The notes under the pieces were generated by a model. It saw nothing but the letters and a program-made list of their open reading frames with translations. It did no database searches and was not told where the DNA came from. DNA of 64,000 bases from an uncultured Chitinophagales bacterium (lineage in GTDB: Bacteria > Bacteroidota > Bacteroidia > Chitinophagales > JADIYW01), in assembly GCA_964472755.1 (NCBI GenBank), contig CAYYMF010000001.1:2381-66380 (forward strand). Reading direction: 5' to 3'. The position numbers and the translations under genes are program-made. Shown piece after piece: positions 11,093 to 64,000 of the stretch. Every line of letters starts with the position of its first letter. The stretch's first letter is position 1.

Positions 11093-11095
11093 AAT

Positions 11096-11698: not shown

Positions 11699-11709
11699 AA
11701 TTCAGGATA

Positions 11710-11717
11710 CAAAGATA
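11710..11717 (-). promoter_or_regulatory. Bacteroidota -7 box TATCTTTG upstream of cysC
   Basis: The reverse complement of caaagata equals the TAnnTTTG consensus. It lies 11 nt from the cysC ATG. Confidence 0.45.
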
Positions 11718-11803
11718 ATTATTTATTTTAATCTACCAATAGTATATTGACTTTATAGACTATTAATTTTTATTTTAACTTATTTTCAAAATATAAGCTT
11801 GTT

Positions 11804-19283: not shown

Positions 19284-19412
19284 TTCACTTCTCATTTCTT
19301 ACTTCTCACTACTTAATACTATTTTTGTAAATGAGCAAAAGTTAGCGTAGCATTCTATTTTGCAGGCGTTTTCGATAGTAATAGAATATCTATTACAGAA
19401 TTCGGGTTTAAT
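19284..19412. repeat. Intergenic repeat, module X fused to module Z (right half of the MITE-like element at 44001-44172)
   Basis: Bases 19330-19412 align without gaps to 44093-44175 with 76 of 83 identical positions (counted by hand). Confidence 0.8.
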
Positions 19413-32437: not shown

Positions 32438-33382
32438 ATGTTGTTTGGTTCAATATGGAAAGATTTAAAGTGGCACTTGAAATTTGGTGTACCATTGACT
32501 AAAATAATTTATGCAAATGTCTTTGTTTTCCTATTGTTGAGTTTTTTGAACGTGATAGATTTTTTTTCAAAACTTCATACAAGTACTTGGTTATTAGAGC
32601 ATCTTTCATTTTATTCTTCTAGGCAGTTTTTCTTCCAACCATGGGGAATTTTGACTTATCAGTTTACGCATATAGGGTTTATGCATATTTTATTTAATAT
32701 GTTGTGGTTGTATTGGTTTGGAATGATTGTTCAAGATTTTCTAGGTCGAAATAAAATTGTACCATTATATCTTTTAGGTGGTTTTTTTGGTGCTGTATTT
32801 TTCGCATTAATTACGAATTTAATACAATTAGCAGATCCAAGTTTTAATTTGAATGGCTCTATGCACGGGGCATCTGCTGGCGTAATGGCTATCGTTTGGG
32901 CAGCGGCTACTTTGTCGCCAAATTATGAAATAAGATTATTGCTTTTAGGTAATATAAAACTGAAATGGATTGCATTGTCGATTTTAGTGTTAGATATTAT
33001 AATGCTCAATGATGGTAATTTTGGTGGACATATTGCCCATATTGGCGGAGCTTTTTTTGGCTGGTTATATATTACATTACTTAGAAATGGTAAAGATTTG
33101 ACACATCCTTTTTATGATGTAGTAGATTTCTTTAAATTAAAATTTAAGAAAAAAGAAAAGTTGAAAGTTGTTTATAGAAAACCACAACAACAACAAAAAG
33201 TTTATGCAGGTCAAGAAAAAAAGCAACAAAGCAATAAAAAAGAAAGTGAATTTTCGGAACTTAATAAACGGGAAAAACAGGAAAGACTTGACAATATATT
33301 AGACAAAATAAATTCATCGGGATACGATAGTTTGACGAGTGCTGAAAAAGAATTTTTATTCAAAATAAGTAAAGAAGATTGA
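32438..33382 (+). CDS. Rhomboid family intramembrane serine protease
   Basis: GASAGVMA (catalytic Ser), HIAHIGGAFFG (catalytic His), and a charged C-terminal tail. Confidence 0.88.
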   Translation: MLFGSIWKDLKWHLKFGVPLTKIIYANVFVFLLLSFLNVIDFFSKLHTSTWLLEHLSFYSSRQFFFQPWGILTYQFTHIGFMHILFNMLWLYWFGMIVQDFLGRNKIVPLYLLGGFFGAVFFALITNLIQLADPSFNLNGSMHGASAGVMAIVWAAATLSPNYEIRLLLLGNIKLKWIALSILVLDIIMLNDGNFGGHIAHIGGAFFGWLYITLLRNGKDLTHPFYDVVDFFKLKFKKKEKLKVVYRKPQQQQKVYAGQEKKQQSNKKESEFSELNKREKQERLDNILDKINSSGYDSLTSAEKEFLFKISKED

Positions 33383-34476
33383 AATTTTTACATTTCATCA
33401 TATCATTTTTCTCTCGAACTATCAATATTTTTGTTGTTGTTGGCTTGTTGGTCTGTTTGTCTGCAAGTTATATTAGTCCAGAAAAATTTGGATTGATAGC
33501 CGTATTGGGTTTTGTGTTTCCGATTTTTGTTGCATTAAATCTATTGTTTGTACTTATTTGGATACTTCGTAAGCGATGGTTTTTTATGGTTTCTTTTATT
33601 GCATTAGTATTGAGTGCAGCTCAAATTGTGCAACTTATTGGGTTTAGAAAAAGCCAAGTAAATAGTGAGCCTAATATAAAAATCATGTCTTATAATGTGC
33701 GAAATTTTGATTTGTATAATTGGAGTGAGAATAAGCAAGCACAAGACAAAATTTTCGAAACGATAGAAGAAGAAAATCCTGATATTATTTGTTTTCAAGA
33801 ATTTTATACAGATGCCTCTGAGAATTTTAACACCATTAAACGCTTAAAAAAATTAGGATATAAGCACTATTTTTTTGTAAGAGAATTGGTTTTACGAAAT
33901 ACAGATGAATGGGGCATTGCCACTTTTTCAAAATTGCCAATTGTATCATCTAATAAAATTTTGAAAGAAGATGAAAGTAATAGTTACAAAAGGTTTCCCT
34001 ATAAAGGTATTTCAACTGATGTTATATTTCAAGATAAGCAAATTAGAATTTTTAATGTACATCTTCAATCTATACACTTTGGAAGAAATGAATATCAAGT
34101 TATTGAAGATTTAAAAGGAAAGGAAATAGAAGAAAATGCCGTTAAAAAAATGCTTAGAAAATTAAGAAATGCTTTTCAAAAACGAGCTGTACAAACAAGA
34201 ACTTTTTTGTCAATATTAGAACAACAAAAGCAACCATATATCATTTGTGGTGATTTGAATGACCTGCCCAATTCATATACTTATAATAAACTTGCTAAAA
34301 ATATGAATGATGCCTTTTTGCAAAATAATATAGGTATTGGTCAAACTTTTAATCGCATTCCATTATTGAGAATTGATTATATTTTGACAACAAAAGATTT
34401 TAAAACAAGTGATTGTAGAGTGATTAAAAATCCAATTTCTGACCACTATCCAATTGTTTCCAAAGTTGGGTTCTAA
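33379..34476 (+). CDS. Endonuclease/exonuclease/phosphatase (EEP) family membrane protein
   Basis: N-terminal TM segments, MSYNVRNF, and C-terminal SDHYPI. TTG start overlaps the rhomboid stop codon by 4 nt, so the start is uncertain. Confidence 0.8.
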   Translation: MKFLHFIISFFSRTINIFVVVGLLVCLSASYISPEKFGLIAVLGFVFPIFVALNLLFVLIWILRKRWFFMVSFIALVLSAAQIVQLIGFRKSQVNSEPNIKIMSYNVRNFDLYNWSENKQAQDKIFETIEEENPDIICFQEFYTDASENFNTIKRLKKLGYKHYFFVRELVLRNTDEWGIATFSKLPIVSSNKILKEDESNSYKRFPYKGISTDVIFQDKQIRIFNVHLQSIHFGRNEYQVIEDLKGKEIEENAVKKMLRKLRNAFQKRAVQTRTFLSILEQQKQPYIICGDLNDLPNSYTYNKLAKNMNDAFLQNNIGIGQTFNRIPLLRIDYILTTKDFKTSDCRVIKNPISDHYPIVSKVGF

Positions 34477-37528: not shown

Positions 37529-38662
37529 ATGATTTTTATTAGAATATTTTTTAGCTTTCTTTTCTTAATAAGTGTTATAAATATTTTTGCAAAAGAGAAA
37601 ATTATACCAAATCATAATTTTGGATTAGATGCTAGTTATCAAATAGGAAAAGTTTTTAAACACACCAAAAATTTTCAACCAACGATAACTGGAGCAACAA
37701 ACGTTTTTCAGATTTCAGCTTTTAAGCAAACGAATGGCAAAAAGGATTGGCAAAGAAAACTAAAATATCCTGAATTAGGTGGAGGCTTTATTGCATTATT
37801 ACATCATAATAGTGATACCATAGGCAATGGATATGCAGCATTTGCATATTTTACATACCCATTTGTCAGAAGTAGATTTGTTGATTTTATTTTAAGATTT
37901 TCTGGAGGATTCGCCTATGACTCAAATGTTTATGACGAGCAAAGTAACCCAGTCAATAATGCTATGGCATCACCTATAAATATTTTTGTAGAAGCCCGAT
38001 TAGGTTTAAATTTTAAGATATATAAAAATGTTGAATTGATTACAGGAATAGCATTTGCACATTATTCTAGTGGAGGTACAAGATTACCCAATCTTGGACT
38101 TAATACGCCAACTTTTTTACTTGGATTAAGATATATAGGCATTTCTAAAAAGGCGACACCATTCAATACCGACCCAGTTGAAAAATCACAATATAAAAAT
38201 GAATTGGGCTTCTTATTAAATACTGGCTGGAGTGATATTACAAAATTTGATAAAGACAAAAGTCATATTATCACATCGGGTTCGGTACAATATGCACGCT
38301 ATTTTAATATCGTTAATAAGTTATATTGTGGTGCATTATTGGAATTTGATTTTGGACAACCACATTTGCAAGAAAACAGACTATTGGTTCAAGATAAATT
38401 AATAAAGAAAGCAGCAAGCAGAATGAGTATTTATGTAGGTAATGAAATTGCATTTGGACGAACGTCTATTTTTTATGCATTAGGAGTTTATTTATTTACG
38501 CCTTATAAAATGTTTACGCCGATATATTTTAAAATTGGTACGAATATTAATTTCTTGGCTTTAGGTAAGAAGAATCGGCCATATTTTAATTTTGGTGTTA
38601 AAGCACATGCTGGGATCGCATCTTATACTGAAATAGGCTTAGGTAGTAATTTTAAATACTAA
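37529..38662 (+). CDS. Outer-membrane beta-barrel protein, acyloxyacyl hydrolase / PagL-like
   Basis: Signal peptide, alternating beta-strand pattern, terminal aromatic residue (..NFKY), and the QTNGKKDWQRKLKYPELG block seen in Bacteroidota proteins annotated as acyloxyacyl hydrolase. The assignment is from memory only. Confidence 0.5.
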   Translation: MIFIRIFFSFLFLISVINIFAKEKIIPNHNFGLDASYQIGKVFKHTKNFQPTITGATNVFQISAFKQTNGKKDWQRKLKYPELGGGFIALLHHNSDTIGNGYAAFAYFTYPFVRSRFVDFILRFSGGFAYDSNVYDEQSNPVNNAMASPINIFVEARLGLNFKIYKNVELITGIAFAHYSSGGTRLPNLGLNTPTFLLGLRYIGISKKATPFNTDPVEKSQYKNELGFLLNTGWSDITKFDKDKSHIITSGSVQYARYFNIVNKLYCGALLEFDFGQPHLQENRLLVQDKLIKKAASRMSIYVGNEIAFGRTSIFYALGVYLFTPYKMFTPIYFKIGTNINFLALGKKNRPYFNFGVKAHAGIASYTEIGLGSNFKY

Positions 38663-44000: not shown

Positions 44001-44172
44001 TAACCCGAATTATGCAATAGGATTCGTTATGAAAGAGAAAACACCAATAAAATATAAACTTTTGTGATTGAAACATAGCAACCTCTATGGTGAATGAGCA
44101 AAAGTTAGCGTAGCGTTATATTTTGCAGGCGTTTTTGATTGTAATAGAATATCTATTGTATAATTCGGGTTT
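44001..44172. mobile_element. MITE-like element bounded by about 20-bp terminal inverted repeats
   Basis: The left end taacccgaattatgcaatag (44001-44020) matches the reverse complement of the right end ctattgtataattcgggttt (44153-44172) at 18 of 20 positions. No ORF. The right half recurs at 19330-19412. Confidence 0.65.
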
Positions 44173-44261: not shown

Positions 44262-45620
44262 ATGAACGGAATTAATAAAGATAGACAAAATTTAATTTTT
44301 GTATTTGCTTTTGTATTAGCATTTGTTGTTAATTATTTTTCGTGGAATAAGCCTTTTTTTTGGGATAGCTTATTAACATCTTCTGTAACCCAATTCTATT
44401 TTGAACATGGGTTTGGAAACTTAATTTTACCCAATGCTTTAGATGCTGATCACCCTCCTTTTTTTTATGTTTATGTTGTTGTTTTTTATAAATTATTTGG
44501 TTTAAACTTGTTTGCAGCACACTTATCTATGCTTTTACCTAGTTTATTGGGCTTATTTGCATTCGTAAAAATTTTACAACACTTAAATTTCTCCTATAAA
44601 TTACAAACGTTTACCATTTTAGGCTATTTTTCTATTCCTGCAATACTTACACAACATACTTTAGTAAGTTATGATTTGATGCTTTCTTCGCTTTATTTAT
44701 TTGGTATCTATTGTATTTTATTTGAGCGAAAAATTTTATTGAGTATAATTGCTATTGGCATCTGTAGTGTTGCTGCTCGTGGATTATTCTTTATGCTTAG
44801 TTTGTTTTTTATTTATTATCTATACAATAGAAATCTAAAAAAATCTATACTAATTTTTTTACCAGCATTATTATTATTTGGAATATGGATGATTTATCAT
44901 ACTTTATTTACACAGCATTTTATTACTTTAGAAAATAATTGGAGTGAACATCGAAAGTTGGTTAATTTAAGGGGATTAACTATGAATCTTATTGCTTTAG
45001 CAAGAGTTCTTTTTGACTTTGGGATTGTTTTACTTTTTATTATTCAGATGTTCCAATTTTATATTACAAAGAAAATAAGTCGGCTTCAATTATTTTGGAT
45101 TATTCCTTTTATAGTTTTTGCTGGAGGTTTTGTTTTTTTATCTAACCCAATTGGACATCGATATTTTTTGGTTGTGTATATCTTTCTTCTAATTTCTTCT
45201 ATTTATTTTTTAAATAAGCAATATAAAAAGTGGCTTTGGATTCTATGTTTGTTGCCTTTGGGTCATTTTCAAATTTATGGCAATCGTATTTCAAATGGTT
45301 GGGATTGTACTTTAGAATATTTGTCATTTATTTCCCTAAAAAATGATTTTGATAAATATATTAAATCAGCGAACATTGATAATTTAAATTTAGGTACTGT
45401 TTTTCCTATGAATTTATCTGAGCGTCAGTATTATTTATCAGGAGATAGTCGTTCAATGGTTAATATACATGGAAAAAATATAGATGATTATTCATTTATT
45501 TTATATTCAAATATTGGGAATGATTTTTCAAATAATCAATTAGACCGAATGCAACAATATCAGATTGTGAAAAGTGAAAAACGTGGCAGAGTTACGATGA
45601 TACTCTATTATACAAAGTAA
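44262..45620 (+). CDS. GT-C fold glycosyltransferase, ArnT/PMT_2 (GT39/GT83)-like
   Basis: About 11 TM segments. Acidic residues follow TM1 (..FFWDSLL..), and the ..DADHPPFFYVYVVVFYKLFG motif resembles the HPPL-YY motif of this family. Confidence 0.6.
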   Translation: MNGINKDRQNLIFVFAFVLAFVVNYFSWNKPFFWDSLLTSSVTQFYFEHGFGNLILPNALDADHPPFFYVYVVVFYKLFGLNLFAAHLSMLLPSLLGLFAFVKILQHLNFSYKLQTFTILGYFSIPAILTQHTLVSYDLMLSSLYLFGIYCILFERKILLSIIAIGICSVAARGLFFMLSLFFIYYLYNRNLKKSILIFLPALLLFGIWMIYHTLFTQHFITLENNWSEHRKLVNLRGLTMNLIALARVLFDFGIVLLFIIQMFQFYITKKISRLQLFWIIPFIVFAGGFVFLSNPIGHRYFLVVYIFLLISSIYFLNKQYKKWLWILCLLPLGHFQIYGNRISNGWDCTLEYLSFISLKNDFDKYIKSANIDNLNLGTVFPMNLSERQYYLSGDSRSMVNIHGKNIDDYSFILYSNIGNDFSNNQLDRMQQYQIVKSEKRGRVTMILYYTK

Positions 45621-45682
45621 TTTATCATCGGAATATTCTAAATTTAACTCATAAAAAAACAGTATCTTAGTTTCCATTTTTG

Positions 45683-47287
45683 ATGGAAACCATAAAGCCG
45701 AAATATAATAAACAAGATATTATTAATGTAGGTCTGATACTGTTGCTTGGGTTTTTTATTGCTCAGCAGCTTCAAGATTATATGGATGTACTGCTTTGGG
45801 ACGAAGCAATATATTTAGACCGAGGATTTTTATTATGGAAGATAATTCCAAATACTTGGGGTCCAATTTATTCAGTTTGGTATAAATTTTTGTCCTATAT
45901 CGAACAAAATAAAATAGCTTTATATTATTTGAATTACAAAGTACTTTATCTTTTAAGTTCAATTTTAGCATATTTATTTATGGTGGCTTTAAGAACTCCA
46001 AAAGTTATGACGTTGTTTTTTGTATGTATGTGGTTGATTCACCCATACAATTTACCATCTTGGCCAAAAATATCTCATTTTGTTATTTGTATTATATTAT
46101 TTGCTGCCCTATTTATACAATATTTAAAAAGTACCATCAATCAAATTGTTGTTTTTTCTATCGCTTTTCTAATTTGTGGTTTTGCTCGTCCTGAATTGTA
46201 TTTATCGTTTATTTTTTCTGTTTTATTGTTATTTATTTTAATTTTTATCAATAGAAAGAATATTAACCAATCAAATATTTTAAGCATTTGTATATGGTTG
46301 TTGTTTGTAGGTGTTACGTATAAACTATATCGAACGCCACTTACCAATGGTGATGCCCAGAGAGGCATGGGTGTTTTTATACAACATTTTGCACTTAATT
46401 ATTCTATTTGGAACAAACAAGATGTTTTGTGGTGGTTCGATTTTCAAGATGCTGTGATGCATTGTTTTAAGCCACCATATACACTTAAAAATTTTGTAGA
46501 AAATCCTTATTTATGGAAACACTTTTCATTTAATATTCAACTATTATTATCAAAATCATTTAGTTTAATATTCAACCTAATTTTTCCATTTCATTTTATC
46601 AGTAAAAAAATATTTTTTGTACTTAGTTCTCTGCTGTCACTTTATCTTCTATATAAAAATAAGTGTAAAATTAAGTACTTCTTTCAACTGATAAAGGAAC
46701 AGTTTCTTTTGTTTAGTTTGTTGTTATTATCTGTTTTACCATCTATTGCATCATCAATTTATGCACATCCTAGAACACATTATTTAGTCCTATTTTTTCC
46801 TTTTATCTTTTTTATACTCAGTGCATTTTTTCCAAAGGATAAGGAGTCAAATATTTTACATAGCCTACTCATCTTTTTAGTTTTTATATTATTTATGCCA
46901 AAAGCAAAAGACTTTCAGTATTTTGATTTATATGGTACTGATAAAAATATGATGACAAAAAAATCCATTAGCTTTATTGAAGATAAATATCAAAATCAGC
47001 CAACTACAATTTTGGATATTGATGGATTGATGCCATCTTTGATGAATAGTAATTTTAAATCAAGCAATATTCGACCCTTAATTAAAGAAGATTCTGTATT
47101 AATTTCAGCTATTATACTTAATGAACAACCTGATATTATATATATTACACCAACTATGATGAAACTAAAGAAAAACAAAACAGATAGCTTGTTTCAACAA
47201 ATGATAGCAGCACCAGAACGATTTAATTATCATAAACAATCTATACCAACTTTAGAAGATGTTTATCTTTTGGAGAAAACGAAGTAA
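45683..47287 (+). CDS. Polytopic membrane protein, putative GT-C-like glycosyltransferase, paralog A
   Basis: At least 10 TM segments, LLWDEAIYLDRG directly after TM1, and a soluble C-terminal domain of about 130 aa. Clearly paralogous to the next gene. An ATG at 45683 follows a TTG at 45680. Confidence 0.45.
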   Translation: METIKPKYNKQDIINVGLILLLGFFIAQQLQDYMDVLLWDEAIYLDRGFLLWKIIPNTWGPIYSVWYKFLSYIEQNKIALYYLNYKVLYLLSSILAYLFMVALRTPKVMTLFFVCMWLIHPYNLPSWPKISHFVICIILFAALFIQYLKSTINQIVVFSIAFLICGFARPELYLSFIFSVLLLFILIFINRKNINQSNILSICIWLLFVGVTYKLYRTPLTNGDAQRGMGVFIQHFALNYSIWNKQDVLWWFDFQDAVMHCFKPPYTLKNFVENPYLWKHFSFNIQLLLSKSFSLIFNLIFPFHFISKKIFFVLSSLLSLYLLYKNKCKIKYFFQLIKEQFLLFSLLLLSVLPSIASSIYAHPRTHYLVLFFPFIFFILSAFFPKDKESNILHSLLIFLVFILFMPKAKDFQYFDLYGTDKNMMTKKSISFIEDKYQNQPTTILDIDGLMPSLMNSNFKSSNIRPLIKEDSVLISAIILNEQPDIIYITPTMMKLKKNKTDSLFQQMIAAPERFNYHKQSIPTLEDVYLLEKTK

Positions 47288-47342
47288 ATGAATAAATATT
47301 AAAAACCATTAATAGTTATAGACTTTAAAAACAACTTACCTT

Positions 47343-48968
47343 GTGAAGGATTTTATGCAAGAGAAATTTAAAAAAGAACATTTTATAATCAATGATTTTA
47401 TAGCTATTTGCCTATTAATAATAATGGGTATTTTTGTTGTGCATAATTTAGAAAACAATATGGATGTTTTGCTTTGGGATGAAGCAAGATATTTAGATAG
47501 AAGTTTTTGGCTTTGGAAAGCATTGCCAAAAACTTGGGGACCAATCTATTCTGTTTGGTATAAAATCCTGTCTTATATAGAAAGCAATAGGGTCGCTTTG
47601 TATTATCTGAATTACAAAATGCTCTTCATTGCAAGTACTATTTTGGCTTATGGATTTATGCGAGTTTATAAAGCTTCTTTATTTGTAGCTTTATTCTTTA
47701 GTTCTATTTGGATGGTGCATAACTATAATTTGCCAGCATGGCCAAAAATTTCTCATTTTTGTATTTGTATAATTTTAGCTACTGGAATTGTTGCTGCATT
47801 TATAAAAAACACGATTAATAAAACGATTGTTTTTGCAATTGCTTTTTTAGTTTGTGGGTACGCACGGCCAGAATTATACTTGTCATTTATTTTTATTCTT
47901 GTCCTACTTTTTGTATTAATCATTAAAAATATCAGAACCTTTAATAAAAGTAATGTTCTTTATTTTGCTATGCTTATTTTTTTGATGCTGTTAAGTTATA
48001 AAGCCTATCGAACGCCTTTAAATAATGAAGATGCTTCAAGAGGGATAGGTGTTTTTTTGCAGCATTATGCTTACAATTTTTATACTTGGACAAAACAAGA
48101 TGTGATATGGTGGTTTGATGTACAAGAAGCTTTGGATAAAAGTTTTAAAGCACCGTATCAACTTAATGCAATCATATTGAGTGTAGATAGTCCATTTTGG
48201 AAACATATTTTTTATAATACAAAATTATTTTTTAGCCATTTGGTATTTATCATTTCAAACTTAATTTCTCCTTTCTATTATATTGACAAAATTCCATTTT
48301 TTATAGGTACTAGCTTGGTAAGTTTGTATATTTTTTGGCATTTTAAACAAAGTTTGTATTTAATTATTAAAAAGGTTAAAACAAATTGGTTGGTATTTCT
48401 AGTTCTATTTTTAGGAATTATTCCTTCGATAGCATCAAGTATTTATGCTCATCCAAGAACACACTATTTAGTCTTGTTAATGCCTTTGATTTTCCTTTTT
48501 TTAAGTACAGTTTTTAAGGAAAATATATATTCTTCATGGAAGGTAATTGTAGCATTTGCTTTGTTTTTTATTTTTACTTCTCCAAAATCTAAAGATTTCA
48601 AATATTTTGATTTGTTTGGTACAGATAAAAATATGATGAATAAAAAAGCTATTCTTTTTTTAGAAAATAAATATAAAACAGATTCTGTTAATGTTTTTGA
48701 TATTGACGGACAACTGAACACTTTAATGACACAAAATTTTAGATCCTATAATATTGGTGCATTTATTTCAAAACCTGAATATCTTTTATCTCAATTTATC
48801 CAAATAGAACAACCTAATGTAATTTATGTTACACCAACGATGTTTAAATTGAAAAGGTCAGAAAAAGATACTGTTTTTCAACAAATGATTCTTCATCCTG
48901 AAAGTTTTGGATACCAAAAAAATAGCATTCCTGGATTGACAGATACCTATTTTCTAATCAGCAAGTAG
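47343..48968 (+). CDS. Polytopic membrane protein, putative GT-C-like glycosyltransferase, paralog B
   Basis: Same architecture, with LLWDEARYLDRS after TM1. Start is GTG 47343 or ATG 47355. Confidence 0.45.
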   Translation: MKDFMQEKFKKEHFIINDFIAICLLIIMGIFVVHNLENNMDVLLWDEARYLDRSFWLWKALPKTWGPIYSVWYKILSYIESNRVALYYLNYKMLFIASTILAYGFMRVYKASLFVALFFSSIWMVHNYNLPAWPKISHFCICIILATGIVAAFIKNTINKTIVFAIAFLVCGYARPELYLSFIFILVLLFVLIIKNIRTFNKSNVLYFAMLIFLMLLSYKAYRTPLNNEDASRGIGVFLQHYAYNFYTWTKQDVIWWFDVQEALDKSFKAPYQLNAIILSVDSPFWKHIFYNTKLFFSHLVFIISNLISPFYYIDKIPFFIGTSLVSLYIFWHFKQSLYLIIKKVKTNWLVFLVLFLGIIPSIASSIYAHPRTHYLVLLMPLIFLFLSTVFKENIYSSWKVIVAFALFFIFTSPKSKDFKYFDLFGTDKNMMNKKAILFLENKYKTDSVNVFDIDGQLNTLMTQNFRSYNIGAFISKPEYLLSQFIQIEQPNVIYVTPTMFKLKRSEKDTVFQQMILHPESFGYQKNSIPGLTDTYFLISK

Positions 48969-49049
48969 AAGTACATTTATACATAAATGTGTATCTTAGA
49001 AAATTCTGTTAAATACCAATATTCTGAAAATTTCTACAATAAAAACTAC

Positions 49050-49057
49050 TACCTTTG
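49050..49057 (+). promoter_or_regulatory. Candidate internal -7 box TACCTTTG upstream of the Wzy-like gene
   Basis: TAnnTTTG, 28 nt before the TTG at 49086. An in-frame stop at 49080-49082 prevents a longer ORF. Confidence 0.35.
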
Positions 49058-49085
49058 GCATTTAGTCGAATAAATTGCATAACGT

Positions 49086-50417
49086 TTGGGAACAGGAAAA
49101 ACATTTTTAGATACGGTGCTTTATACTCGTGACCAAGAAGGTTATGAGAAAAAAGTAGTTTTTCTTTTTATCTATTCTTTATTTTGTAACAGTAATACTT
49201 TTTCTCAGTTTTCAGCTGTGAGTAGTATTGGAGGAATTTTTGTAGTAATTCTTATTCCTCTAATGTTATTATTGACTGGAGTCTATTGGTATGTAGCTAT
49301 ATTTGTATATAAGCGTTTATCATTGATTGATTTGTTTGTACTTATTTGGTGTTTAACGCCAATTTATAACGCTATTGCCTCACATCTTACCGTTGATGTT
49401 AAAATTTTGAAAGCCTTAATCAATGCAATGCCAAGATACCTAGTTGTATCTGCAAGTCTGATGTATTTTTTAATCAAGAGTGAGAAAATTACAATAAAAC
49501 AATATTGCCTCGCTGGTGTTTTGGTGGGTTGGTTTGATTTGATTTTGTATATTATTTTAAATATTTATTTAGACCCACAGTCTTACAAAGCAGATGAAAG
49601 TTTGGTGGGTTATAATCCATCAAAAGGTGGATATATTTGGCGTTTTGGTAGTGTCTATATCATATTTGCCTTGTCCTATCATTTTGTCGTATTTTTAGTA
49701 AGGAATAAGTTTTTGCATTTAATAGCCACCATGATTTTCTTGGCTTATATGTTTTTTTTGGATAAACAACGTACAGAAATTTTATCTGTTTTAATACCAA
49801 TTATTATTTATATGTTTTTCAAGTTGAGATGGTATGAAGTCATCAACCGAATGACACAGTTGGTTTTGTTTTCAGGTCTTATTCTGGGGATTATTTATTA
49901 TATCAATCCTATGCTGCTACAATTTACAGCAGATATGTTTATTAATTTCTTTAAGTTTATGATGGGTATGGAAACTGGGGAAGCTTCTGCCGATTCTAGA
50001 ATTATACAATTTACCAATGCTTACGATTTCTTTATGCGTCACCCTACTTTTATGTTTTGGGGGATTGGTTATGTGAAGCCTGAAATTCTATATCTTGAAA
50101 TGGGGAAATTCATTTATTCAGATACTGGAATTGTTGGTATTTTAGTGGCACACGGCATTATCGGAACGATTTTACAAACCTCTATGTTTTTATATCCAAT
50201 TTATGTTTTTTTTAAAGTGAAGCATTATCGAAATGATATTTATTATAATATGGGCATGTTGGGTTGTGTAGTTGGCTTTACCAGTGGTATGTTTAGTGGA
50301 GGTTATGCCTTAAATGCATTTGGTATTTTCTATTTCTTTGCTTTTGTGGAATATTTTAGAGTAAAAGAAAAGATTTATTGGAAACATAAACGCTTGGAAC
50401 GTGAAAAAGCTAATTAA
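49086..50417 (+). CDS. O-antigen ligase / polymerase (Wzy_C) family membrane protein
   Basis: About 11 TM segments. ..DKQRTEILSVLIPIIIYMF.. and the periplasmic loop ..SADSRIIQFTNAYDFFMRHPTFMFWGIGYV.. follow the R...W....P.fG.G.G pattern of this family. Non-ATG start, uncertain. Confidence 0.6.
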   Translation: MGTGKTFLDTVLYTRDQEGYEKKVVFLFIYSLFCNSNTFSQFSAVSSIGGIFVVILIPLMLLLTGVYWYVAIFVYKRLSLIDLFVLIWCLTPIYNAIASHLTVDVKILKALINAMPRYLVVSASLMYFLIKSEKITIKQYCLAGVLVGWFDLILYIILNIYLDPQSYKADESLVGYNPSKGGYIWRFGSVYIIFALSYHFVVFLVRNKFLHLIATMIFLAYMFFLDKQRTEILSVLIPIIIYMFFKLRWYEVINRMTQLVLFSGLILGIIYYINPMLLQFTADMFINFFKFMMGMETGEASADSRIIQFTNAYDFFMRHPTFMFWGIGYVKPEILYLEMGKFIYSDTGIVGILVAHGIIGTILQTSMFLYPIYVFFKVKHYRNDIYYNMGMLGCVVGFTSGMFSGGYALNAFGIFYFFAFVEYFRVKEKIYWKHKRLEREKAN

Positions 50418-51909
50418 ATATTTTTTCATAATATTGGTCATTTTTGCGATTCTTAAAAATTGTACATCACCAAAAAAGGAAAAAAAGCAAATTGAAGAAG
50501 TTGTAACCAATTTTTCTTCTATTGAAATTAATTTAAAATTGGATTATTCAAAAGAGCAGCAATTACATGTGGATAATTTATTTGGCTTAAATACCGGTTT
50601 TATTTGGACAAAAGAAATTGATAAATCAAATGCTTTTGTTGAATTATTAAAAGAAAGTGGCAATGTTGTTTTGAGATTTCCAGGTGGAGGCGTTGCCAAT
50701 AATTATTATCCTGATGAAGTTGGCTATGGTTATAATCCAAAGAAACGACCTGTTGGTTTTAAAAGCATCATGCTCTATAATCAAACAAAAGATAGAAAAT
50801 ATAATATCATTGAGAATTTTGTCAGTTTATGTAAACAAACTAATGCTAAAGTAATTTATTGTGTTAATGTTTTAGATGGCAATGTTGAAAAAATGCAAAT
50901 CGTTATTGACCGATTGAAAAAGGAAAATATTGAGCTAATCGGTGTAGAATTAGGCAATGAACTAAATATGGGTAATTATCGTCATGTTTTTCCAAATGGA
51001 CAAGTATATTTAGATACTATTCAAAAATACATTCAAGCAATAAGAAAAAACTATCCTGATTTGAAAATTGGATTGGTTGCTGAAACGTTAGATGTCAATA
51101 ATTTAAAGGACAAGAGAAGTCAATTTATGCATGAATGGAATAAAAAATTTTCTACCACAGACTTTGATGCCTATATCGTTCATTCTTATTTTCCAATTGA
51201 TGATAAACAAAAGAATTTCGATGAAATTTTCCTAAAATCTGTTGATATTAGTAATCCATATTACACAAACTATACAACAAATTTATTGGAATATTTTAAC
51301 ACCATCGATAAAGAGCAAAAGAAAAAAATTTGGATTACAGAATGGGGTATTTTTAATTTGTATGGAGGTAATACATTTTTGCAAGCTGCATCTACGGGAC
51401 AGTTTCTAAATAATGTAATACAATATGATTCTTTAAATCGTATTGATATTGCATGTTTACACGATATTGGAGCAATGATTGGGCAATCTAATCCTAAACT
51501 TCAATATACTTATAAAAATGAAAAATATGCGGTTGGTGCGATATACTTTCCTTATAAGTTTTTATCAGATATTATTGTAAAAAATAAATCCAAAATAGTA
51601 GCACATCAAATAGATAAAAAAGTTCCCTCTAATTTTGTAATACAAACATTTTATAGTACAGAAAATAAAAAAACATACATTTATTTTATTAATTCAGCTC
51701 CAACAACTGTTCATTTAGCTATTCCAACTTCCAAATTAGAAAAGCAAATTGAATTTATTGTAGCAGACAAGTTGTATGCTCATACTGGATTTGCAGCATT
51801 TTTGAAAGATTATCCTTCAAAAAACTCCTTAATTCAATACAAAAAGGAAAATAGCGTTACTAATCAAATTAAAATTGCTCCTTATTCGCTTGGTGTTATC
51901 AGTTTTTAG
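50401..51909 (+). CDS. Lipoprotein with clan GH-A (beta/alpha)8 glycoside hydrolase signatures
   Basis: GTG start. Signal plus Cys (..AILKNC). GVELGNELN is a candidate acid/base site and KIWITEWG a candidate nucleophile. It overlaps the previous gene by 17 nt. Confidence 0.6.
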   Translation: MKKLIKYFFIILVIFAILKNCTSPKKEKKQIEEVVTNFSSIEINLKLDYSKEQQLHVDNLFGLNTGFIWTKEIDKSNAFVELLKESGNVVLRFPGGGVANNYYPDEVGYGYNPKKRPVGFKSIMLYNQTKDRKYNIIENFVSLCKQTNAKVIYCVNVLDGNVEKMQIVIDRLKKENIELIGVELGNELNMGNYRHVFPNGQVYLDTIQKYIQAIRKNYPDLKIGLVAETLDVNNLKDKRSQFMHEWNKKFSTTDFDAYIVHSYFPIDDKQKNFDEIFLKSVDISNPYYTNYTTNLLEYFNTIDKEQKKKIWITEWGIFNLYGGNTFLQAASTGQFLNNVIQYDSLNRIDIACLHDIGAMIGQSNPKLQYTYKNEKYAVGAIYFPYKFLSDIIVKNKSKIVAHQIDKKVPSNFVIQTFYSTENKKTYIYFINSAPTTVHLAIPTSKLEKQIEFIVADKLYAHTGFAAFLKDYPSKNSLIQYKKENSVTNQIKIAPYSLGVISF

Positions 51910-51916
51910 AAATGAA

Positions 51917-52939
51917 TTATAACTTCAATTCTTTCATTTTGTTTTCCCATTTCCAAGCAGAAAGCATTGCATCTTCAATATTATATCGACAATGCCATTT
52001 TAAAGCCTTAGATGCTTTTTCATTGTTGGCATAAATTTTTTCTACGTCGCCAGCACGTCTTGCTCCAACTTTATAATTTAATTTTTGACCTGTTGTTTTT
52101 TCAAATGCATGAATGGCTTCCAAAACAGAAACACCATTGCCTGTACCTAAATTAAAAACCTCACAATTAGAATGGTTTTGATTTTCGATTAGGTATTTTA
52201 ACGCAAGTGTATGTGCATGAGCAATATCACAAACATGAATATAATCACGCACACAAGAACCATCAGGCGTATCATAATCACCGCCAAAAACAGTCAATTG
52301 CTCTAGTTTTCCAATAGCTGTTTGAGTAATATACGGCACTAAATTATCGGGTCTATTCAATAACATTTCTCCTAAAATTCCACTTGGATGAGCTCCTACA
52401 GGATTGAAATATCTTAATAATATAGATTTTGTAGTATTGACTTTAGAATAGTGTTGTATGATTTGTTCGCCGATTTGTTTGGTGTGTGCATACGCTGATT
52501 CCGCTTCTTGAAAAGGCGTTTCTTCCGTTACTGGCAAAGCTTTGGCGTTGCCATAAACAGAGCAAGAAGATGAAAATACAAAATTTGGAATGCCAAATTT
52601 TTGAATGCCTTCCAAAATATTATTTAATGAAATTAAGTTGTTGTTGTAATATAATATCGGATTGGCAACCGATTCTGGTACTGTTTTAAATGCTGCAAAA
52701 TGTATAATTCCAACGGCATCTTTATATTGTTCTAAAACATCAAATGTTTCTTGTTTATTACATAAATCAATTTGATAAAATTTGAATTTTTTTTCAGTGA
52801 TTTGTTCAATTGCTCCAATTGGATATTTTGTTGAGCGTGCTAAATTATCAATACATACGACTTCAAAGCCATTTTCTAATAAATCTACAATGGTGTGCGA
52901 ACCAATATAGCCTGTTCCTCCAGTTACTATTACTTTCAT
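51917..52939 (-). CDS. galE: UDP-glucose 4-epimerase
   Basis: VTGGTGYIGSH, catalytic YAHTK, 340 aa. Confidence 0.92.
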   Translation of the reverse strand: MKVIVTGGTGYIGSHTIVDLLENGFEVVCIDNLARSTKYPIGAIEQITEKKFKFYQIDLCNKQETFDVLEQYKDAVGIIHFAAFKTVPESVANPILYYNNNLISLNNILEGIQKFGIPNFVFSSSCSVYGNAKALPVTEETPFQEAESAYAHTKQIGEQIIQHYSKVNTTKSILLRYFNPVGAHPSGILGEMLLNRPDNLVPYITQTAIGKLEQLTVFGGDYDTPDGSCVRDYIHVCDIAHAHTLALKYLIENQNHSNCEVFNLGTGNGVSVLEAIHAFEKTTGQKLNYKVGARRAGDVEKIYANNEKASKALKWHCRYNIEDAMLSAWKWENKMKELKL

Positions 52940-52943
52940 TTTG

Positions 52944-53804
52944 TTACTTTACTAATTCTATTAAATATTGTCCATAACCACTTTTTAATAATGGTTGTGC
53001 TATTTCTTTTAATTGGTCTGACGTGATAAATCCTTTTTTATAAACTATTTCTTCTATGCAACCAACTTTTAAGCCTTGTCTTTCTTCGATTACTTGTACA
53101 AATTGAGAAGCTTGCATCAAAGAATTAAATGTGCCTGTATCTAACCAAGCGGTGCCTCTATCTAAAATGCCCACTTTTAATTTGCCTCTTTTTAGATATT
53201 CTTTATTGACATCTGTAATTTCATATTCACCTCGAGGAGATGGCTCTAAATTCTCCGCAATTCCAACGACATCATTATCATAGAAATACAAACCAGGAAC
53301 GGCATAGTTCGATTTAGGATTTGTTGGTTTTTCTTCGATAGACACGGCATTTAATTGTTCATCAAATTCAACAACACCATACCTTTCAGGGTCTGAAACG
53401 TGATAGGCATAAATTACACCGCCATCAGGATTGTTGTTTTTTATCAATAAATCTTCTAATCCTGAGCCATAAAAAATATTATCGCCTAAAATCAACGCAA
53501 CTTTATCATCGCCGATAAACGATTTGCCAATCACAAAAGCCTGTGCCAATCCATTGGGAACTTCCTGAATGGCATATTGAAAATTACAGCCATATTTTTT
53601 TCCATCTCCCAATAATCTTTCAAAATGAGGTAAGTCGTGTGGTGTAGAAATAATCAATATTTCATTAATTCCAGCTTGCATCAAAACAGATAAAGGATAA
53701 TAAATCATAGGCTTATCATAAATTGGCATAATTTGTTTGCTAATAGCCATTGTAATTGGATAAAGTCGAGTTCCAGAGCCTCCTGCCAAGATTATTCCTT
53801 TCAT
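52944..53804 (-). CDS. rfbA: Glucose-1-phosphate thymidylyltransferase
   Basis: [11 protein letters not shown]; ...LGDNIFYG...; ...[17 protein letters not shown]. Confidence 0.95.
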
Positions 53805-60927: not shown

Positions 60928-62235
60928 TTACCAATTCAATCCGATATAATTTTCTAGATTTTCGGCTGCTTTTACACGAACCAAATCAATAACGGCTTTC
61001 TTTTTGGATAAAGCTTGTAAATGTTCTTCTATTGAGATATTTCTGTGATTAATTACAACGATGTCAGCATGTTCGATAGCTTCAGCTAAATTATCAGTAA
61101 TCAAAACAGAGAGATGTGGTAAAGCTTCATCAATATAGGATTTATTAGAACCTATTAATTTTGCAATATGAACATTTTTATCATAAATTTTTAAGCTATA
61201 ACCTTTTCCTAACAATTTTTCTGCTAAATCAACTGATGGACTAAAACGTAAATCATCTGTTCCTTCTTTAAATGCTAAGCCTAAAAAGGCAATTTTTTTA
61301 GTATGTTGAGCAGCAATTAAATCATAGGCGATTTTCTTTTGATTTTCATTCGAGGCATCAATATGAGAAAGCATTGGTATATTGATAAAATTATCTTTCC
61401 CCAAAGTTACCATTCCAGATAAATCTTTTGGCAAACACGAGCCTCCATAAGCAAAACCAGGTTTGAAATAAGTAGGTGAAATATTCAAATGGGTATCTTT
61501 GCAAAATAATTCCATTACCTTATGAGAGTCTATACCTAATGCTTTGGAAATGTTTCCTACTTCATTGGCAAAAGTAACTTTTAAGGCATGAAATGAATTG
61601 TTGACATATTTGATGATTTCAGCAACACGGATATCAACGATTTCGATTGGAGCAGGCAATTCTTTATACAAAGCAGCAACTTTTTCTAATGCGATATCGC
61701 TATCGCCACCTAATACTGTGATTGATGGATGATAATAATCTTTTACAGCAGTTCCTTCTCTTAAAAATTCAGGATTCGAAACGACTGAAAAGTCTTGATT
61801 TCTTTTCTTGTCAGAATATTGTTCAATAATTTCTCCAACTTTTTCATTCGTGCCAGGTAATACTGTACTTCTAATGACCACTGAATGAAAAGTATTTTTA
61901 TTTTTTAGAGCAGTACCAATTTGCTCAGCAACTTTGTAAATAAAATCTAAGTTTAAATTGCCTCTTTTAGAGGAAGGCGTTCCAACACAGATAATACTAA
62001 TTTCAGAATTAGAAACGGCATCTTTCGCATCGTTGGTTGCTCTGATTTTGCCATTTTTAAACTCTTCTGCGATTATCGTGTCAATATCCTTTTCAACGAT
62101 AGTTGGCAAACCTTTATTGATTAAATCTACTTTTTGTTGGTGTACATCTACACCAATTACCTGATGTCCGTTTTTTGCTAAACAGCCTAAGCTTACACAT
62201 CCAACATAGCCTAGTCCAAAAATTGAAATTTCCAT
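60928..62235 (-). CDS. GDP-mannose 6-dehydrogenase-type nucleotide-sugar dehydrogenase (AlgD-like)
   Basis: Collinear with AlgD as I remember it: M.ISIFGLGYVG...VIGVDV...K(I/V)DLIN.G..PIVE, ICVGTPS, VVIRSTVLPGT, NPEFLREGTA(I/V)KDY, GGSCLPKD, GL(S/A)FK.GTDDLR.SP. Same length class (435 aa). Confidence 0.75.
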   Translation of the reverse strand: MEISIFGLGYVGCVSLGCLAKNGHQVIGVDVHQQKVDLINKGLPTIVEKDIDTIIAEEFKNGKIRATNDAKDAVSNSEISIICVGTPSSKRGNLNLDFIYKVAEQIGTALKNKNTFHSVVIRSTVLPGTNEKVGEIIEQYSDKKRNQDFSVVSNPEFLREGTAVKDYYHPSITVLGGDSDIALEKVAALYKELPAPIEIVDIRVAEIIKYVNNSFHALKVTFANEVGNISKALGIDSHKVMELFCKDTHLNISPTYFKPGFAYGGSCLPKDLSGMVTLGKDNFINIPMLSHIDASNENQKKIAYDLIAAQHTKKIAFLGLAFKEGTDDLRFSPSVDLAEKLLGKGYSLKIYDKNVHIAKLIGSNKSYIDEALPHLSVLITDNLAEAIEHADIVVINHRNISIEEHLQALSKKKAVIDLVRVKAAENLENYIGLNW

Positions 62236-62243
62236 TGTTTTAT

Positions 62244-64000
62244 TTAATTGATTTTTATGTTTCCTTGTCCGTATTTGTCTAATATTATTTTATATGTTTT
62301 TCGCTTAATTTTTAAAGTTATAGACGAAGATGTTAATGTGGGTTCAGTTACAAATATAGTATTATTTTTATAGATAAATAATATCGGCTTAGTAACTTTG
62401 ATAACTTTTTTTAGTGAAGGAATCTTAATTTCTTGATTTGGATTAAAAATAGTACCACAATAAGCATCTTCATTATTTAGATAAATCATTTGAATATCGT
62501 TGTTATTGTAAACGATAGAATATAAGTTGGATTTATAAGGATTTTCTGCCGCAGTTTTGGCATAGACAATAGCATACGAAGTAGCTTGGTTTTGTTGGTT
62601 TATTGTTGCTGTAAAAATTGCTAGTGAGTCAATATTTTTCTCTTTCTTATAGCTCTTAGAAATAGTTCCCCAATCGTTAGCTCTATTTTCTATAGTATAT
62701 TGAATGGTATTTGCATTTGGTGAGCAATAAATTAAATTATCGTGGTATAAATAATCGCCATTATTAAGCGTAACAGTACTTTTTTGAAGTGCCATTTTTT
62801 GATTGTTTATAAAAACACCATTTCTAAATCTCGTTTGATTTAAAGAAGTCGTAATCGGTTTATTGAGTGTATTTTTTGGTGCAGCAATCAAGCAGATTAA
62901 TTTATCTTGTTGTACAATCCAAGTTTTATTAAGTTGAGTAATTTTTGATTTATTTTTATCTAGATAATCAAATGTCATGTTTGCTACTATCATATTCCCA
63001 AACTTTGCAACACCTGTATTGGAAGTTCTTGAAATATTATCTGTTCCTTCAATATATGAAAAGCCTGGTAATAAATTCCAATCAAAAGCACCCAAAATAT
63101 TAGAATACTCAATGGCATCTTTGATGATAAAATGATTGCCAAAATGTAAGAATTTTCCGAGTAAGTTTTCAGAATTGATACTTTCAGTAGGTAAGTTTCT
63201 ATCGGATAATACCTTTATAAAAAAAGAGGCATTGGAAGAATGAGCGACTGCAATTTCTGAATAAGGAAAACTTTTTACACCAACTAAATTAAAGTTTTTA
63301 ATATTATTTTGTTGCTCGATTATTTTTTGATAATCTAAAACATATAAAGTATCTATCTTTTTAAATCGTTCTAATGTTTCTATAATTTGTGGTGCTTTTA
63401 AGGCACCTTTTCTAGAACTAGATCTATCCATTGTACTTGGTACAGTATAACTTCCTCTTGCTAACCATTGCCAACTTTCTAAGATAAAATTTCTTAGAAT
63501 GGCTATTTTATTATCTGAAAAACGATAAGGCGTTTGGTTTAACAATTCAAAAACATCCACACAACTTTCTAAAAGCCCTTTGCCATAAGCATATTCTTGA
63601 ATACGTGCTTTATGAAATCGATAGGTATAATCTGCTTGCAATCCCTCCACATCGTTGGAAATATAAATCTCATTATTGATTAATTCTTTAGCATTATTGA
63701 TTAAAGTTGTGTCATTAAAATACAAAGCATATTTTAATTGAATTGTAGCTAAATAAACTCTATTAACATAAGTTCTCTTTTCTGGATAAAGGGCATCTAG
63801 TTTTTTAAGTATATTATTATAGTTTGATGGTGTTATATTTGTACCTACTGCCACCAAAATATCCACCAAGTGATTTTTGGCAGTAATATCATTTACAAAC
63901 CAATTTGGACAAGTATAATCTTCTTGAAACCATTTTTCTAATCCAAGATTAATAACCTCTAAATATTTTTTATTTTTATTTTTGGAGTAATCAATAGCTA
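62244..64000 (-). CDS. Polysaccharide lyase family 8-like protein (N-terminus outside the window)
   Basis: The frame stays open past the ORF-track TTG at 63869 to the window edge (...CPNWFVNDITAKNHLVDILVAV...). PL8-like blocks are NW..N.I, GLQADYTYRFH..RIQEYAYGKG, TGVAKFGNMIVANM and NKTWIVQQDKLICLIAAP. Confidence 0.55.
   Translation of the reverse strand, partial: AIDYSKNKNKKYLEVINLGLEKWFQEDYTCPNWFVNDITAKNHLVDILVAVGTNITPSNYNNILKKLDALYPEKRTYVNRVYLATIQLKYALYFNDTTLINNAKELINNEIYISNDVEGLQADYTYRFHKARIQEYAYGKGLLESCVDVFELLNQTPYRFSDNKIAILRNFILESWQWLARGSYTVPSTMDRSSSRKGALKAPQIIETLERFKKIDTLYVLDYQKIIEQQNNIKNFNLVGVKSFPYSEIAVAHSSNASFFIKVLSDRNLPTESINSENLLGKFLHFGNHFIIKDAIEYSNILGAFDWNLLPGFSYIEGTDNISRTSNTGVAKFGNMIVANMTFDYLDKNKSKITQLNKTWIVQQDKLICLIAAPKNTLNKPITTSLNQTRFRNGVFINNQKMALQKSTVTLNNGDYLYHDNLIYCSPNANTIQYTIENRANDWGTISKSYKKEKNIDSLAIFTATINQQNQATSYAIVYAKTAAENPYKSNLYSIVYNNNDIQMIYLNNEDAYCGTIFNPNQEIKIPSLKKVIKVTKPILFIYKNNTIFVTEPTLTSSSITLKIKRKTYKIILDKYGQGNIKIN

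Follow-up and report, generated by a model that had tools for sequence, protein, structure and literature searches.

A conserved gene triad encoding a predicted GT-C-fold protein, a Wzy_C-type enzyme, and a glycosidase lipoprotein at a putative surface-glycan locus of an uncultured Chitinophagales bacterium

How could a surface glycan be built by a gene block that encodes only proteins acting in the periplasm? The question is raised by five genes, here called g1 to g5, in a 64,000-nucleotide stretch of DNA from an uncultured Chitinophagales bacterium (contig CAYYMF010000001.1), referred to below as the window. The original prediction, made from the nucleotide letters of the window alone, had described three of the products as glycosyltransferases of the C fold (GT-C), the fourth as a Wzy_C/O-antigen ligase-like protein, and the fifth as a lipoprotein of glycoside hydrolase (GH) clan GH-A, and it had taken the lack of cytoplasmic glycosyltransferase (GT) and exporter genes nearby as a sign of post-export decoration or of a non-canonical polymerization route. 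Its account of the layout proved accurate: g1 to g5 are tightly spaced, co-directional open reading frames (ORFs) (Table 1), with gaps of 59, 55, and 117 bp between g1/g2, g2/g3, and g3/g4, respectively, and an overlap of 17 bp between g4 and g5. Public gene calls on identical metagenome contigs start g2 one codon later (534 aa) and agree for the other genes. The motifs DADHPPFFYVY (g1), LLWDEA(I/R)YLDR (g2 and g3), and GVELGNELN and WITEWG (g5) were likewise present, and the description of a block that encodes periplasm-acting proteins only, three of them GT-C_A-like according to their predicted folds, stood as well. The G+C content of the window is low, about 27 to 33%. Its nearest public relative is a locus from a Chitinophagales metagenome-assembled genome obtained from activated sludge (L001; L001 to L046 denote the public loci compared, and WIN the locus in the window), the proteins of which are 85 to 99% identical.

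What recurs in relatives is a core of three genes. The ORFs of 34 loci retrieved via the family of g2 and g3, designated c0, were clustered, and g4 homologs served as a second, c0-independent way to further loci. What is conserved is a triad of c0, Wzy_C (g4), and GH (g5) genes, which is constant in order and usually features overlapping genes. It is present at all loci with a g4 homolog (WIN, L001, and L035; L003, L006, L010, L011, L012, and L013; L042/43, L044, and L045) except L008, which has c0 and the g4 homolog without the GH gene. Three of the triad lineages (L042/43, L044, and L045) were reached through g4 and not through c0, and order and overlaps are kept across clades down to about 30% identity. 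The surroundings differ from clade to clade. In the window clade (WIN, L001, L036 to L039, and L035), two c0 genes and a gene for a PMT_2-type GT-C are flanked by housekeeping genes. In a sister Chitinophagales clade (L003, L006, L010 to L013, and in part L008), a divergent extra c0 gene is followed by the triad, a sulfotransferase gene, and a GT4 gene. In L042/43 and L045, the triad is preceded by genes for an MBOAT protein, a Wzx-type flippase (Polysacc_synt/MatE), an Acyl_transf_3 protein, a GT4 enzyme, and a PhoD protein with a type IX secretion system (T9SS) domain, and in L044 by MBOAT, Acyl_transf_3, and extra c0 genes. The accessory genes adjoining the triad are typical of loci for secreted polysaccharides with O-acylation or sulfation. 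The triad with its fixed order of c0, Wzy_C, and GH lipoprotein appears to be new as a unit, and literature searches returned no description of the c0 family or of its triad with Wzy_C and GH; the kind of system, i.e., GT-C, Wzy_C, and GH proteins in surface-glycan assembly, is already known. Genes encoding T9SS C-terminal domains frequently adjoin the triad. A CotH kinase-like protein with such a sorting domain is encoded between g5 and galE in L001 (16352-18076) and L039 (5836-7560), so that g5 and galE are not always neighbors even among members of the species group.

Because the same core occurs within Wzx, GT4, and acyltransferase loci of relatives, the most economical reading of the block is that it serves the periplasmic polymerization, decoration, and trimming stage of a Wzx-dependent surface polysaccharide, the cytoplasmic genes for which lie unlinked in the genome. 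We assign this reading a probability of roughly 50%. The step from periplasm-acting parts to a non-canonical route is weakened by the flippase, GT4, and acyltransferase genes beside the triad in relatives, and the argument from absences loses force because they are largely explained by unlinked genes. As to whether the block is a fragment of an ordinary wzx/wzy cluster, an outcome that the original prediction had considered, a Wzx-type context was indeed found in relatives, whereas the flanks in the window are of housekeeping type. In the proposed mechanism, the core would be a translationally coupled triad of a c0 GT-C (g2, duplicated as g3), a Wzy_C enzyme (g4), and a GH-A lipoprotein (g5). 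Lipid-linked sugar units would be made in the cytoplasm by products of unlinked genes (adjacent GT4 and Wzx-type flippase genes in relatives) and flipped to the periplasmic face, where g4 would polymerize or ligate the undecaprenyl-diphosphate (Und-PP)-linked units. g2 and g3, together with g1 in the window lineage, would then add sugars from polyprenyl-phosphate (polyprenyl-P) donors to the growing or finished chain, possibly with the invariant Asp of a WDEAxY motif in the first periplasmic loop as catalytic base. Finally, the membrane-tethered g5 would trim, size, or release the polymer, a part played by PslG-type enzymes in other exopolysaccharide loci. The analysis established gene content, predicted folds, conserved residues, conservation of the triad, and the accessory genes of relatives; the donors, the acceptor, the order of the steps, and the nature of the glycan are inferred. 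GT-C enzymes acting on flipped lipid-linked glycans have precedents in lactococcal WpsH and WpsJ, which are proposed to work beside a Wzx-type flippase (PMC10821137), and in side-chain addition by GT136 (PMC11127046).

The part assigned to g2 and g3 depends on what the c0 family is. The two had been predicted to be tandem paralogs of 535 and 541 aa with at least 10 transmembrane (TM) segments and a C-terminal domain of about 130 aa; they share 51% identity, and 13 TM helices were predicted. A word-indexed homology search with c0 found 23 relatives, and an exhaustive profile search raised this to 1,683 cluster representatives (50% identity, E ≤ 1e-3), of which 778 score E ≤ 1e-30; among the best 150 matches listed, nearly all are full-length (about 540 aa). 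A genome scan placed members in Chitinophagales, Saprospirales, Nitrospirota, Chloroflexota, Ignavibacteriota, Sumerlaeota, and Paceibacterota, with a spread over at least seven phyla, and all NCBI names seen for members read "hypothetical protein." Scans of g2 and g3 against Pfam and NCBIfam gave no match even at E ≤ 1, no Pfam family was found in 78 diverse c0 members, PDB sequence-profile searches with the g2 family (25 and 78 sequences) returned nothing, and tblastn of g2 against phage and plasmid collections gave no match. Comparisons by hhalign of c0 with the g1 family, a Nitrospirota PMT_2 family, a 611-aa Nitrospirota neighbor, and a PMT_2 protein yielded nothing significant; therefore, c0 cannot be joined to GT-C by sequence.

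AlphaFold2 produced a confident model of g2, with a predicted local distance difference test (pLDDT) value of 90 and a predicted TM-score (pTM) of 0.91. Foldseek returned 12 matches with a probability above 0.4, all of them GT-C-fold proteins (DPY19, STT3, AglB, Pmt1/2, Pmt4, ALG3, AftB, and PIG-U); the top matches (DPY19, STT3, AglB, Pmt1/2, Pmt4, ALG3, and AftB) reached probabilities of 0.57 to 1.0. The 13 predicted TM helices start from a cytoplasmic N-terminus, with K/R-rich loops alternating on one side. Because of these loops, the positive-inside rule assigns both the first loop and the C-terminal domain to the extracytoplasmic side. The predicted first periplasmic loop spans residues 29 to 77 and contains three short helices. 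Within it, D41 of the WDEAxY motif, which follows TM1, is invariant among the 78 diverse members, and D36, E42, Y45, R170-P-E172, R228, Q235, H281, N285, H367, and Y368 are conserved in at least 90% of them. The invariant polar residues occupy the ends of helices and the first loop, an arrangement known from GT-C active sites, and in position and chemistry the WDEAxY motif resembles the loop-1 acidic (DE) motif of PMT/ArnT-type enzymes. Judged from the model, the GT-C fold of c0 is well supported, if not proven, and c0 appears to be a large unannotated GT-C-fold family, new here. A transporter family, the outcome that the original prediction had named as fatal to its view of the paralogs, was not recovered: transporters matched the g2 model with a probability of at most 0.08 and a TM-score of about 0.1. 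It is accordingly very improbable that g2 and g3 are non-enzymes, i.e., transporters or scaffolds, and that the locus is a chance juxtaposition. Such an explanation would fit the lack of a sequence match to any GT family and Foldseek E values of g2 above 1e-3, but not TM-scores of about 0.1 for transporters versus 0.29 to 0.44 for GT-C proteins, the placement of the invariant polar residues, or a triad with overlapping genes whose order is conserved to about 30% identity.

In a neighbor-joining tree, the g2/g3 duplication falls within the window/L035 lineage, and the extra c0 genes of the sister clade (L003/L006/L010 to L013, at about 8.1 to 9.9 kb, minus strand) form a separate, deeper lineage; the two-copy state therefore arose at least twice. 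The extra c0 of L044 (3114-4581), likewise independent of the g2/g3 duplication, was called as two ORFs of 424 and 102 aa, which may reflect a frameshift or a pseudogene. c0 genes also lie beside genes for PMT/PMT_2-type GT-Cs in unrelated lineages, namely L035, Nitrospirota, and L046. In the Nitrospirota loci L014 to L019 (Ca. Magnetominusculus and relatives), a gene for a PMT/PMT_2 GT-C (558 aa), an overlapping c0 gene (about 545 aa), and a gene for a 611-aa membrane protein without a Pfam match form a three-gene string that looks like another multi-GT-C module around c0. In phyla other than Bacteroidota, c0 neighbors are mostly unrelated housekeeping genes, with GT2/GT4 genes in some loci only, and apart from the recurring PMT-type neighbors no family-wide context signal was found at these loci. 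The recurrence beside PMT-type enzymes and the independent duplications could be taken to favor a self-contained periplasmic route likened to mycobacterial arabinan and mannan synthesis, in which three GT-C_A-like enzymes would build the glycan from polyprenyl-P-monosaccharides, g4 would ligate it, and g5 would edit it. Three consecutive genes for GT-C_A-type enzymes with no Leloir GT gene within 10 to 18 kb, and GH51 arabinofuranosidases as the only solved sequence relatives of g5, are in line with this route. We nevertheless rate it as unlikely, since the GT4 and Wzx-type flippase genes of triad relatives point to a cytoplasmic start, a polyprenyl-P-sugar synthase or small flippase is linked in no locus, g1 is not a conserved partner, and the GH51 match of g5 is limited to about 90 N-terminal residues and could be a matter of clan, not of family.

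For g1, the predicted structure bears out the assignment to ArnT/PMT_2-like GT-Cs. The top Foldseek match of its AlphaFold2 model (pLDDT of 92, built with a 35-member family) is ArnT 5f15 (E = 1.3e-4, query-normalized TM-score [TMq] = 0.49), and the next 30 or so are all GT-C proteins (ALG12, Pmt4, STT3, ALG9, AftB, PglB, Emb, and PimE). The family profile aligned to a genuine Pfam PMT_2 protein in hhalign with a probability of 78% (E = 1.7e-5, 181 columns), and one of the 35 homologs matched Pfam PMT_2 (PF13231; E = 1.5e-4); g1 itself gave no match in direct Pfam and NCBIfam scans, even at E ≤ 1. F33-W34-D35, directly after TM1, is invariant in the family, and D61, H64, P65, and P66 are nearly invariant, the HPP motif preceding TM2. 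The sole match of the g1 family profile in a PDB sequence-profile search, to ParB (E = 2), was dismissed as spurious. g1 is thus, according to its model, a divergent ArnT/PMT_2-like GT-C. It stands outside the conserved unit as a lineage-specific neighbor. In L040, a 45%-identical ortholog occurs without the triad, beside Exo_endo_phos and Rhomboid-DUF6576 genes (the group as a whole at 10001-13402). Because Exo_endo_phos and rhomboid genes also lie upstream of g1 in the window (32438-34476, 10 kb away), g1 seems to be the resident gene, next to which a g2 to g5 triad cassette landed.

The likeness of g1 to ArnT bears on another explanation, lipopolysaccharide (LPS) modification, in which g1 would be an ArnT-like lipid A/core GT, g4 a WaaL O-antigen ligase, and g2 and g3 would decorate the O-antigen after polymerization. 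As predicted originally, galE- and rfbA-like genes converge on the block, both on the minus strand directly 3' of g5; of the rfbBCD genes said to be absent from the window, rfbB was not detected, in that tblastn with galE found no other galE-like (RmlB-type) short-chain dehydrogenase/reductase, rfbC and rfbD not having been searched for. The adjacency of rfbA and galE, a PagL-like lipid A deacylase gene 6 kb upstream, and the Pfam description of Wzy_C as "O-antigen ligase" would fit LPS. However, the rfbA/galE adjacency is not conserved (the insertion in L001/L039; other neighbors in L035 and L042 to L045), g1 lies apart from the triad in other lineages, c0 extends to phyla that have no LPS, and it is not obvious what a GH lipoprotein would do in the assembly of LPS. 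We regard modification of LPS as improbable.

The Wzy_C character of g4 is transitive, resting on homologs: 8 of the 25 family members match Pfam Wzy_C (PF04932; best E = 2.6e-9), and precomputed PF04932 annotations exist for g4 homologs, including the 98%-identical P0067. g4 itself showed no Pfam match at E ≤ 1 and none in NCBIfam, and a PDB profile search with its family gave no match. The description of g4 as Wzy_C/O-antigen ligase-like thus stood at the level of the family, but g4 itself falls below the threshold. R229 and R305 are invariant in the family, and H319 is nearly so (in at least 90% of members). Wzy_C-type proteins use Und-PP-linked oligosaccharide donors in the CAZy scheme (PMC10920833). 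The status of g5 as a clan GH-A lipoprotein was corroborated by a Pfam Glyco_hydro_cc (PF11790) score of 27.6 bits (cutoff of 21) and by invariant residues. Among nine orthologs, down to 26% identity, the lipobox residue C21, RFPGG, N186-E187, and T313-E314-W315 are invariant, with N186-E187 (acid/base) and E314 (nucleophile) as the candidate catalytic pair. The g5 family profile matched GH51 arabinofuranosidases in the PDB (E = 6.7e-6) over about 90 N-terminal residues (family profile positions 104 to 196), so that the similarity may be at the level of the clan and not of the family. The same search returned GH51 enzymes only and no GH39/PslG at E ≤ 10. By sequence, g5, a lipoprotein of clan GH-A, is closer to GH51 enzymes than it is to PslG; the earlier comparison with PslG may hold for function, but it does not hold for sequence, as the solved relatives are all GH51.

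The best structural matches of g2 (DPY19, STT3, AglB, and Pmt1/2/4) glycosylate proteins, WDEA resembles the loop-1 DE motif of PMT enzymes, and Wzy_C takes in PglL-type O-oligosaccharyltransferases (O-OTases) (PMC9239064). This raises protein O-glycosylation as an explanation, with g1, g2, and g3 as PMT- or DPY19-like enzymes acting on secreted or T9SS cargo and g4 as a PglL-type O-OTase. The occurrence of c0 in monoderm and candidate phyla radiation (CPR) lineages and the T9SS C-terminal-domain genes commonly found beside the triad would agree with it. Yet the order in which Foldseek ranks the GT-C classes lacks significance, Bacteroidota very commonly carry T9SS cargo genes, and the dedicated GH, the MBOAT/Acyl_transf_3 acyltransferases, and the sulfotransferase better fit a polysaccharide, which leaves O-glycosylation unlikely.

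Against the preferred reading, the periplasmic stage of a Wzx-dependent polysaccharide, stand the following points. No sequence-level tie links g2 and g3 to any characterized GT family, and the GT-C Foldseek matches of g2 are weak (E = 0.02 to 0.8, best 0.024; TMq = 0.29 to 0.44). The view of g2 and g3 as GT-C enzymes is thus carried by the predicted structure, in which all matches above a probability of 0.4 are GT-C proteins, but not by sequence, and with E values of at least 0.02. Most c0 members outside Chitinophagales are isolated among unrelated genes, and some come from monoderm or CPR lineages, so the acceptor need not be a Gram-negative exopolysaccharide. No initiating phosphoglycosyltransferase (PGT), polyprenyl-P-sugar synthase, small flippase, Wzz, or Wza gene was seen beside the triad at any locus. 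As far as can be told from the homologs, g4 could be a ligase or an O-OTase instead of a polymerase. In the window, neither Wzx nor GT4 is encoded within 10 to 18 kb of the block, and the GT4 enzyme encoded elsewhere in the window is not an ortholog of the sister-clade GT4 (24% identity, E = 2e-4).

Comparison with known systems places the block as follows. ArnT/PMT_2-type GT-C_A enzymes (CAZy GT83 and GT39) resemble g1, whose model superposes best on ArnT and which has an Asp after TM1 and HPP before TM2, and also g2 and g3, with their predicted 13 TM helices, helical first periplasmic loop with WDEAxY, and C-terminal periplasmic domain. In contrast to these enzymes, g1 remains below all Pfam thresholds, and g2 and g3 have no detectable sequence relation to PMT, PMT_2, STT3, or any other family model. 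The psl locus of Pseudomonas, which directs a Wzx/Wzy-dependent exopolysaccharide, encodes the hydrolase PslG, the Wzy-like PslJ, the Wzx-like PslK, and the acyltransferase PslL. With relatives included, the shared elements are a Wzy_C-type protein, a clan GH-A hydrolase, a Wzx-type flippase, GT4, and Acyl_transf_3. A GT-C-fold core member is present here and is not known from psl; moreover, a PslA-type initiating enzyme and PslD/PslE export proteins were not found here, g5 matches GH51 and PF11790 rather than GH39, and the cytoplasmic genes are unlinked in the window genome. A canonical Wzx/Wzy locus differs in that the block and its flanks in the window have no genes for Wzx, an initiating PGT, Leloir GTs, or Wzz/Wza; in relatives, Wzx-type flippase and GT4 genes adjoin the triad, and PGT, Wzz, and Wza were not seen there either. 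For WaaL-type Wzy_C enzymes, a possible parallel is offered by the two invariant Arg residues and the conserved His of the g4 family, residues of the kind that in WaaL bind Und-PP and activate the acceptor; the second Arg and the His are, however, spaced differently than in the published WaaL numbering, and g4 itself is below the Wzy_C threshold.

Two further systems offer closer parallels for the GT-C proteins. For the lactococcal polysaccharide pellicle (PSP), WpsH is described as a GT-C polymerase, WpsJ as a GT-C ligase, and WpsG as a Wzx flippase; WpsH and WpsJ are proposed to act outside the cytoplasm on a flipped lipid-linked oligosaccharide, one polymerizing it and the other transferring it to an acceptor (PMC10821137). 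Compared by description, it provides an earlier example of tandem GT-Cs serving a single glycan pathway; the host is Gram-positive, though, and the scheme has no Wzy_C protein or GH. GT136 enzymes are GT-Cs that have their catalytic acidic residue close to TM1, carry a periplasmic domain at the C-terminus, and modify a polymer after export with an undecaprenyl-P-sugar donor (PMC11127046). By description only, c0 shares the general plan of GT136 and of Gtr-type three-component systems. It departs from GT136 in having 13 TM helices and an alpha/beta domain instead of 11 TM helices and a beta-rich carbohydrate-binding module, and, unlike GT136, Gtr, and Arn three-component systems, neither the window block nor the relatives examined have a linked polyprenyl-P-sugar synthase or small/MATE flippase.

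Within approximately 10 kb to the right and 18 kb to the left of the block, no GT-A/GT-B transferase, Wzx, ABC exporter, PGT, Wzz, or Wza was found. The left flank contains no glycan genes over these 18 kb (DUF983, DUF4442, TrxB, CoaE, PagL-like, SpoIIE, and others), and beyond galE and rfbA the next ones on the right, for a UDP-glucose dehydrogenase and a PL8 lyase, follow only after about 10 kb, at 61 to 64 kb. The absence of cytoplasmic GTs and an exporter, as originally predicted, thus holds near the block, but not for the whole window, since GT2, GT4, and Acyl_transf_3 genes occur elsewhere (Table 1). They belong to a glycan/sulfate group 33 to 43 kb upstream, the nearest GT2 gene being 39 kb away. 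No orthologs of the sulfotransferase, Wzx, and MBOAT genes of relatives were found in the window, and the distant GT2/GT4 pair cannot be claimed as the missing cytoplasmic half, as it shows no orthology to the relatives' accessory genes. The supply of 3'-phosphoadenosine 5'-phosphosulfate (PAPS) could be relevant, since sister-clade triads carry a sulfotransferase gene. The dehydrogenase/PL8 pair hints that the organism makes or degrades a uronic-acid-containing polysaccharide. Two ORFs for YhcG-type PDDEXK nucleases (55-540 and 3310-3783), 37% identical over aligned columns, look truncated relative to the Pfam model and may be fragments of mobile or defense genes.

Table 1. Positions of the g1 to g5 block and of other features in the window
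Feature	Position	Strand	Description
g1	44262-45620	+	452 aa; GT-C glycosyltransferase, ArnT/PMT_2-like (predicted fold); small C-terminal periplasmic domain
g2	45680-47287	+	535 aa; c0 family (GT-C fold, predicted); C-terminal alpha/beta domain of about 130 aa
g3	47343-48968	+	541 aa; tandem paralog of g2
g4	49086-50417	+	443 aa; Wzy_C superfamily (polymerase, ligase, or O-OTase type), via homologs
g5	50401-51909	+	502 aa; lipoprotein, clan GH-A (beta/alpha)8 glycoside hydrolase with C-terminal domain
galE-like UDP-hexose 4-epimerase	51917-52939	-	Epimerase and GDP_Man_Dehyd families; convergent with g5, 7-bp gap
rfbA-like glucose-1-phosphate thymidylyltransferase	52944-53804	-	NTP_transferase family
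MITE-like insertion	44004-44169	.	About 166 bp; upstream of g1, in the promoter region
377-aa protein	37529-38662		PagL (lipid A 3-O-deacylase) domain; 6 kb upstream of the block
Acyl_transf_3	668-1948		28% identical to Acyl_transf_3 of L044
GT2	4331-5260		
GT4	5284-6411		
349-aa protein	6421-7470		No Pfam match
cysN-like	8795-10081		
cysD-like	10184-11092		
APS kinase	11096-11698		
UDP-glucose/GDP-mannose dehydrogenase	60928-62235		Right edge of the window
PL8-family polysaccharide lyase	62244-63869		Adjoins the dehydrogenase

The upstream element resembling a miniature inverted-repeat transposable element (MITE), already recognized in the original prediction, was confirmed. It has 17-nt terminal inverted repeats (CCCGAATTATGCAATAG and CTATTGTATAATTCGGG) with TTTAA on either side, the orthologous spacer of L001 is an empty site, and hisF is separated from the ATP synthase operon by a partial second copy (about 85 bp of the right half, at about 19328-19411). 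Three public assemblies break within the element, the Logan contigs L036 to L038 starting in its right arm; the MITE is therefore multicopy in the genome. An RNA element in this spacer was rejected in favor of the MITE, Rfam giving only a sub-threshold CRISPR-DR60 match. A scan for sigma-70 promoters and terminators showed no enrichment over shuffled sequences, with a model that is ill-suited to Bacteroidota promoters.

Most glycosylation outside the cytoplasm is the work of GT-C enzymes, which attach N-, O-, and C-linked sugars to proteins, modify lipid A, and act in the synthesis of the mycobacterial cell wall, and new GT-C families have repeatedly exposed new pathways. Here, an unannotated family of about 1,700 clusters at 50% identity models confidently as GT-C and has a clear candidate active site. 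A bolder interpretation, to which we attach a low probability, would make c0 a new CAZy-level GT-C family and an obligate partner of Wzy_C and a tethered glycosidase. The triad would then be an unrecognized periplasmic polymerization and editing machine that, in the window lineage with its two c0 proteins and ArnT-like GT-C, builds a glycan largely or wholly outside the cytoplasm from polyprenyl-P sugars; if true, Gram-negative bacteria would have a counterpart to the assembly of mycobacterial arabinan/mannan or to lactococcal GT-C polymerization. In any case, the context of the triad is a handle for annotating many "hypothetical proteins," and in Bacteroidota the conserved three-gene cassette of c0, Wzy_C, and glycosidase genes is a defined, tractable experimental target. 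Should the GT-C turn out to partner Wzy_C as a polymerase or ligase, the textbook Wzx/Wzy scheme would gain a variant.

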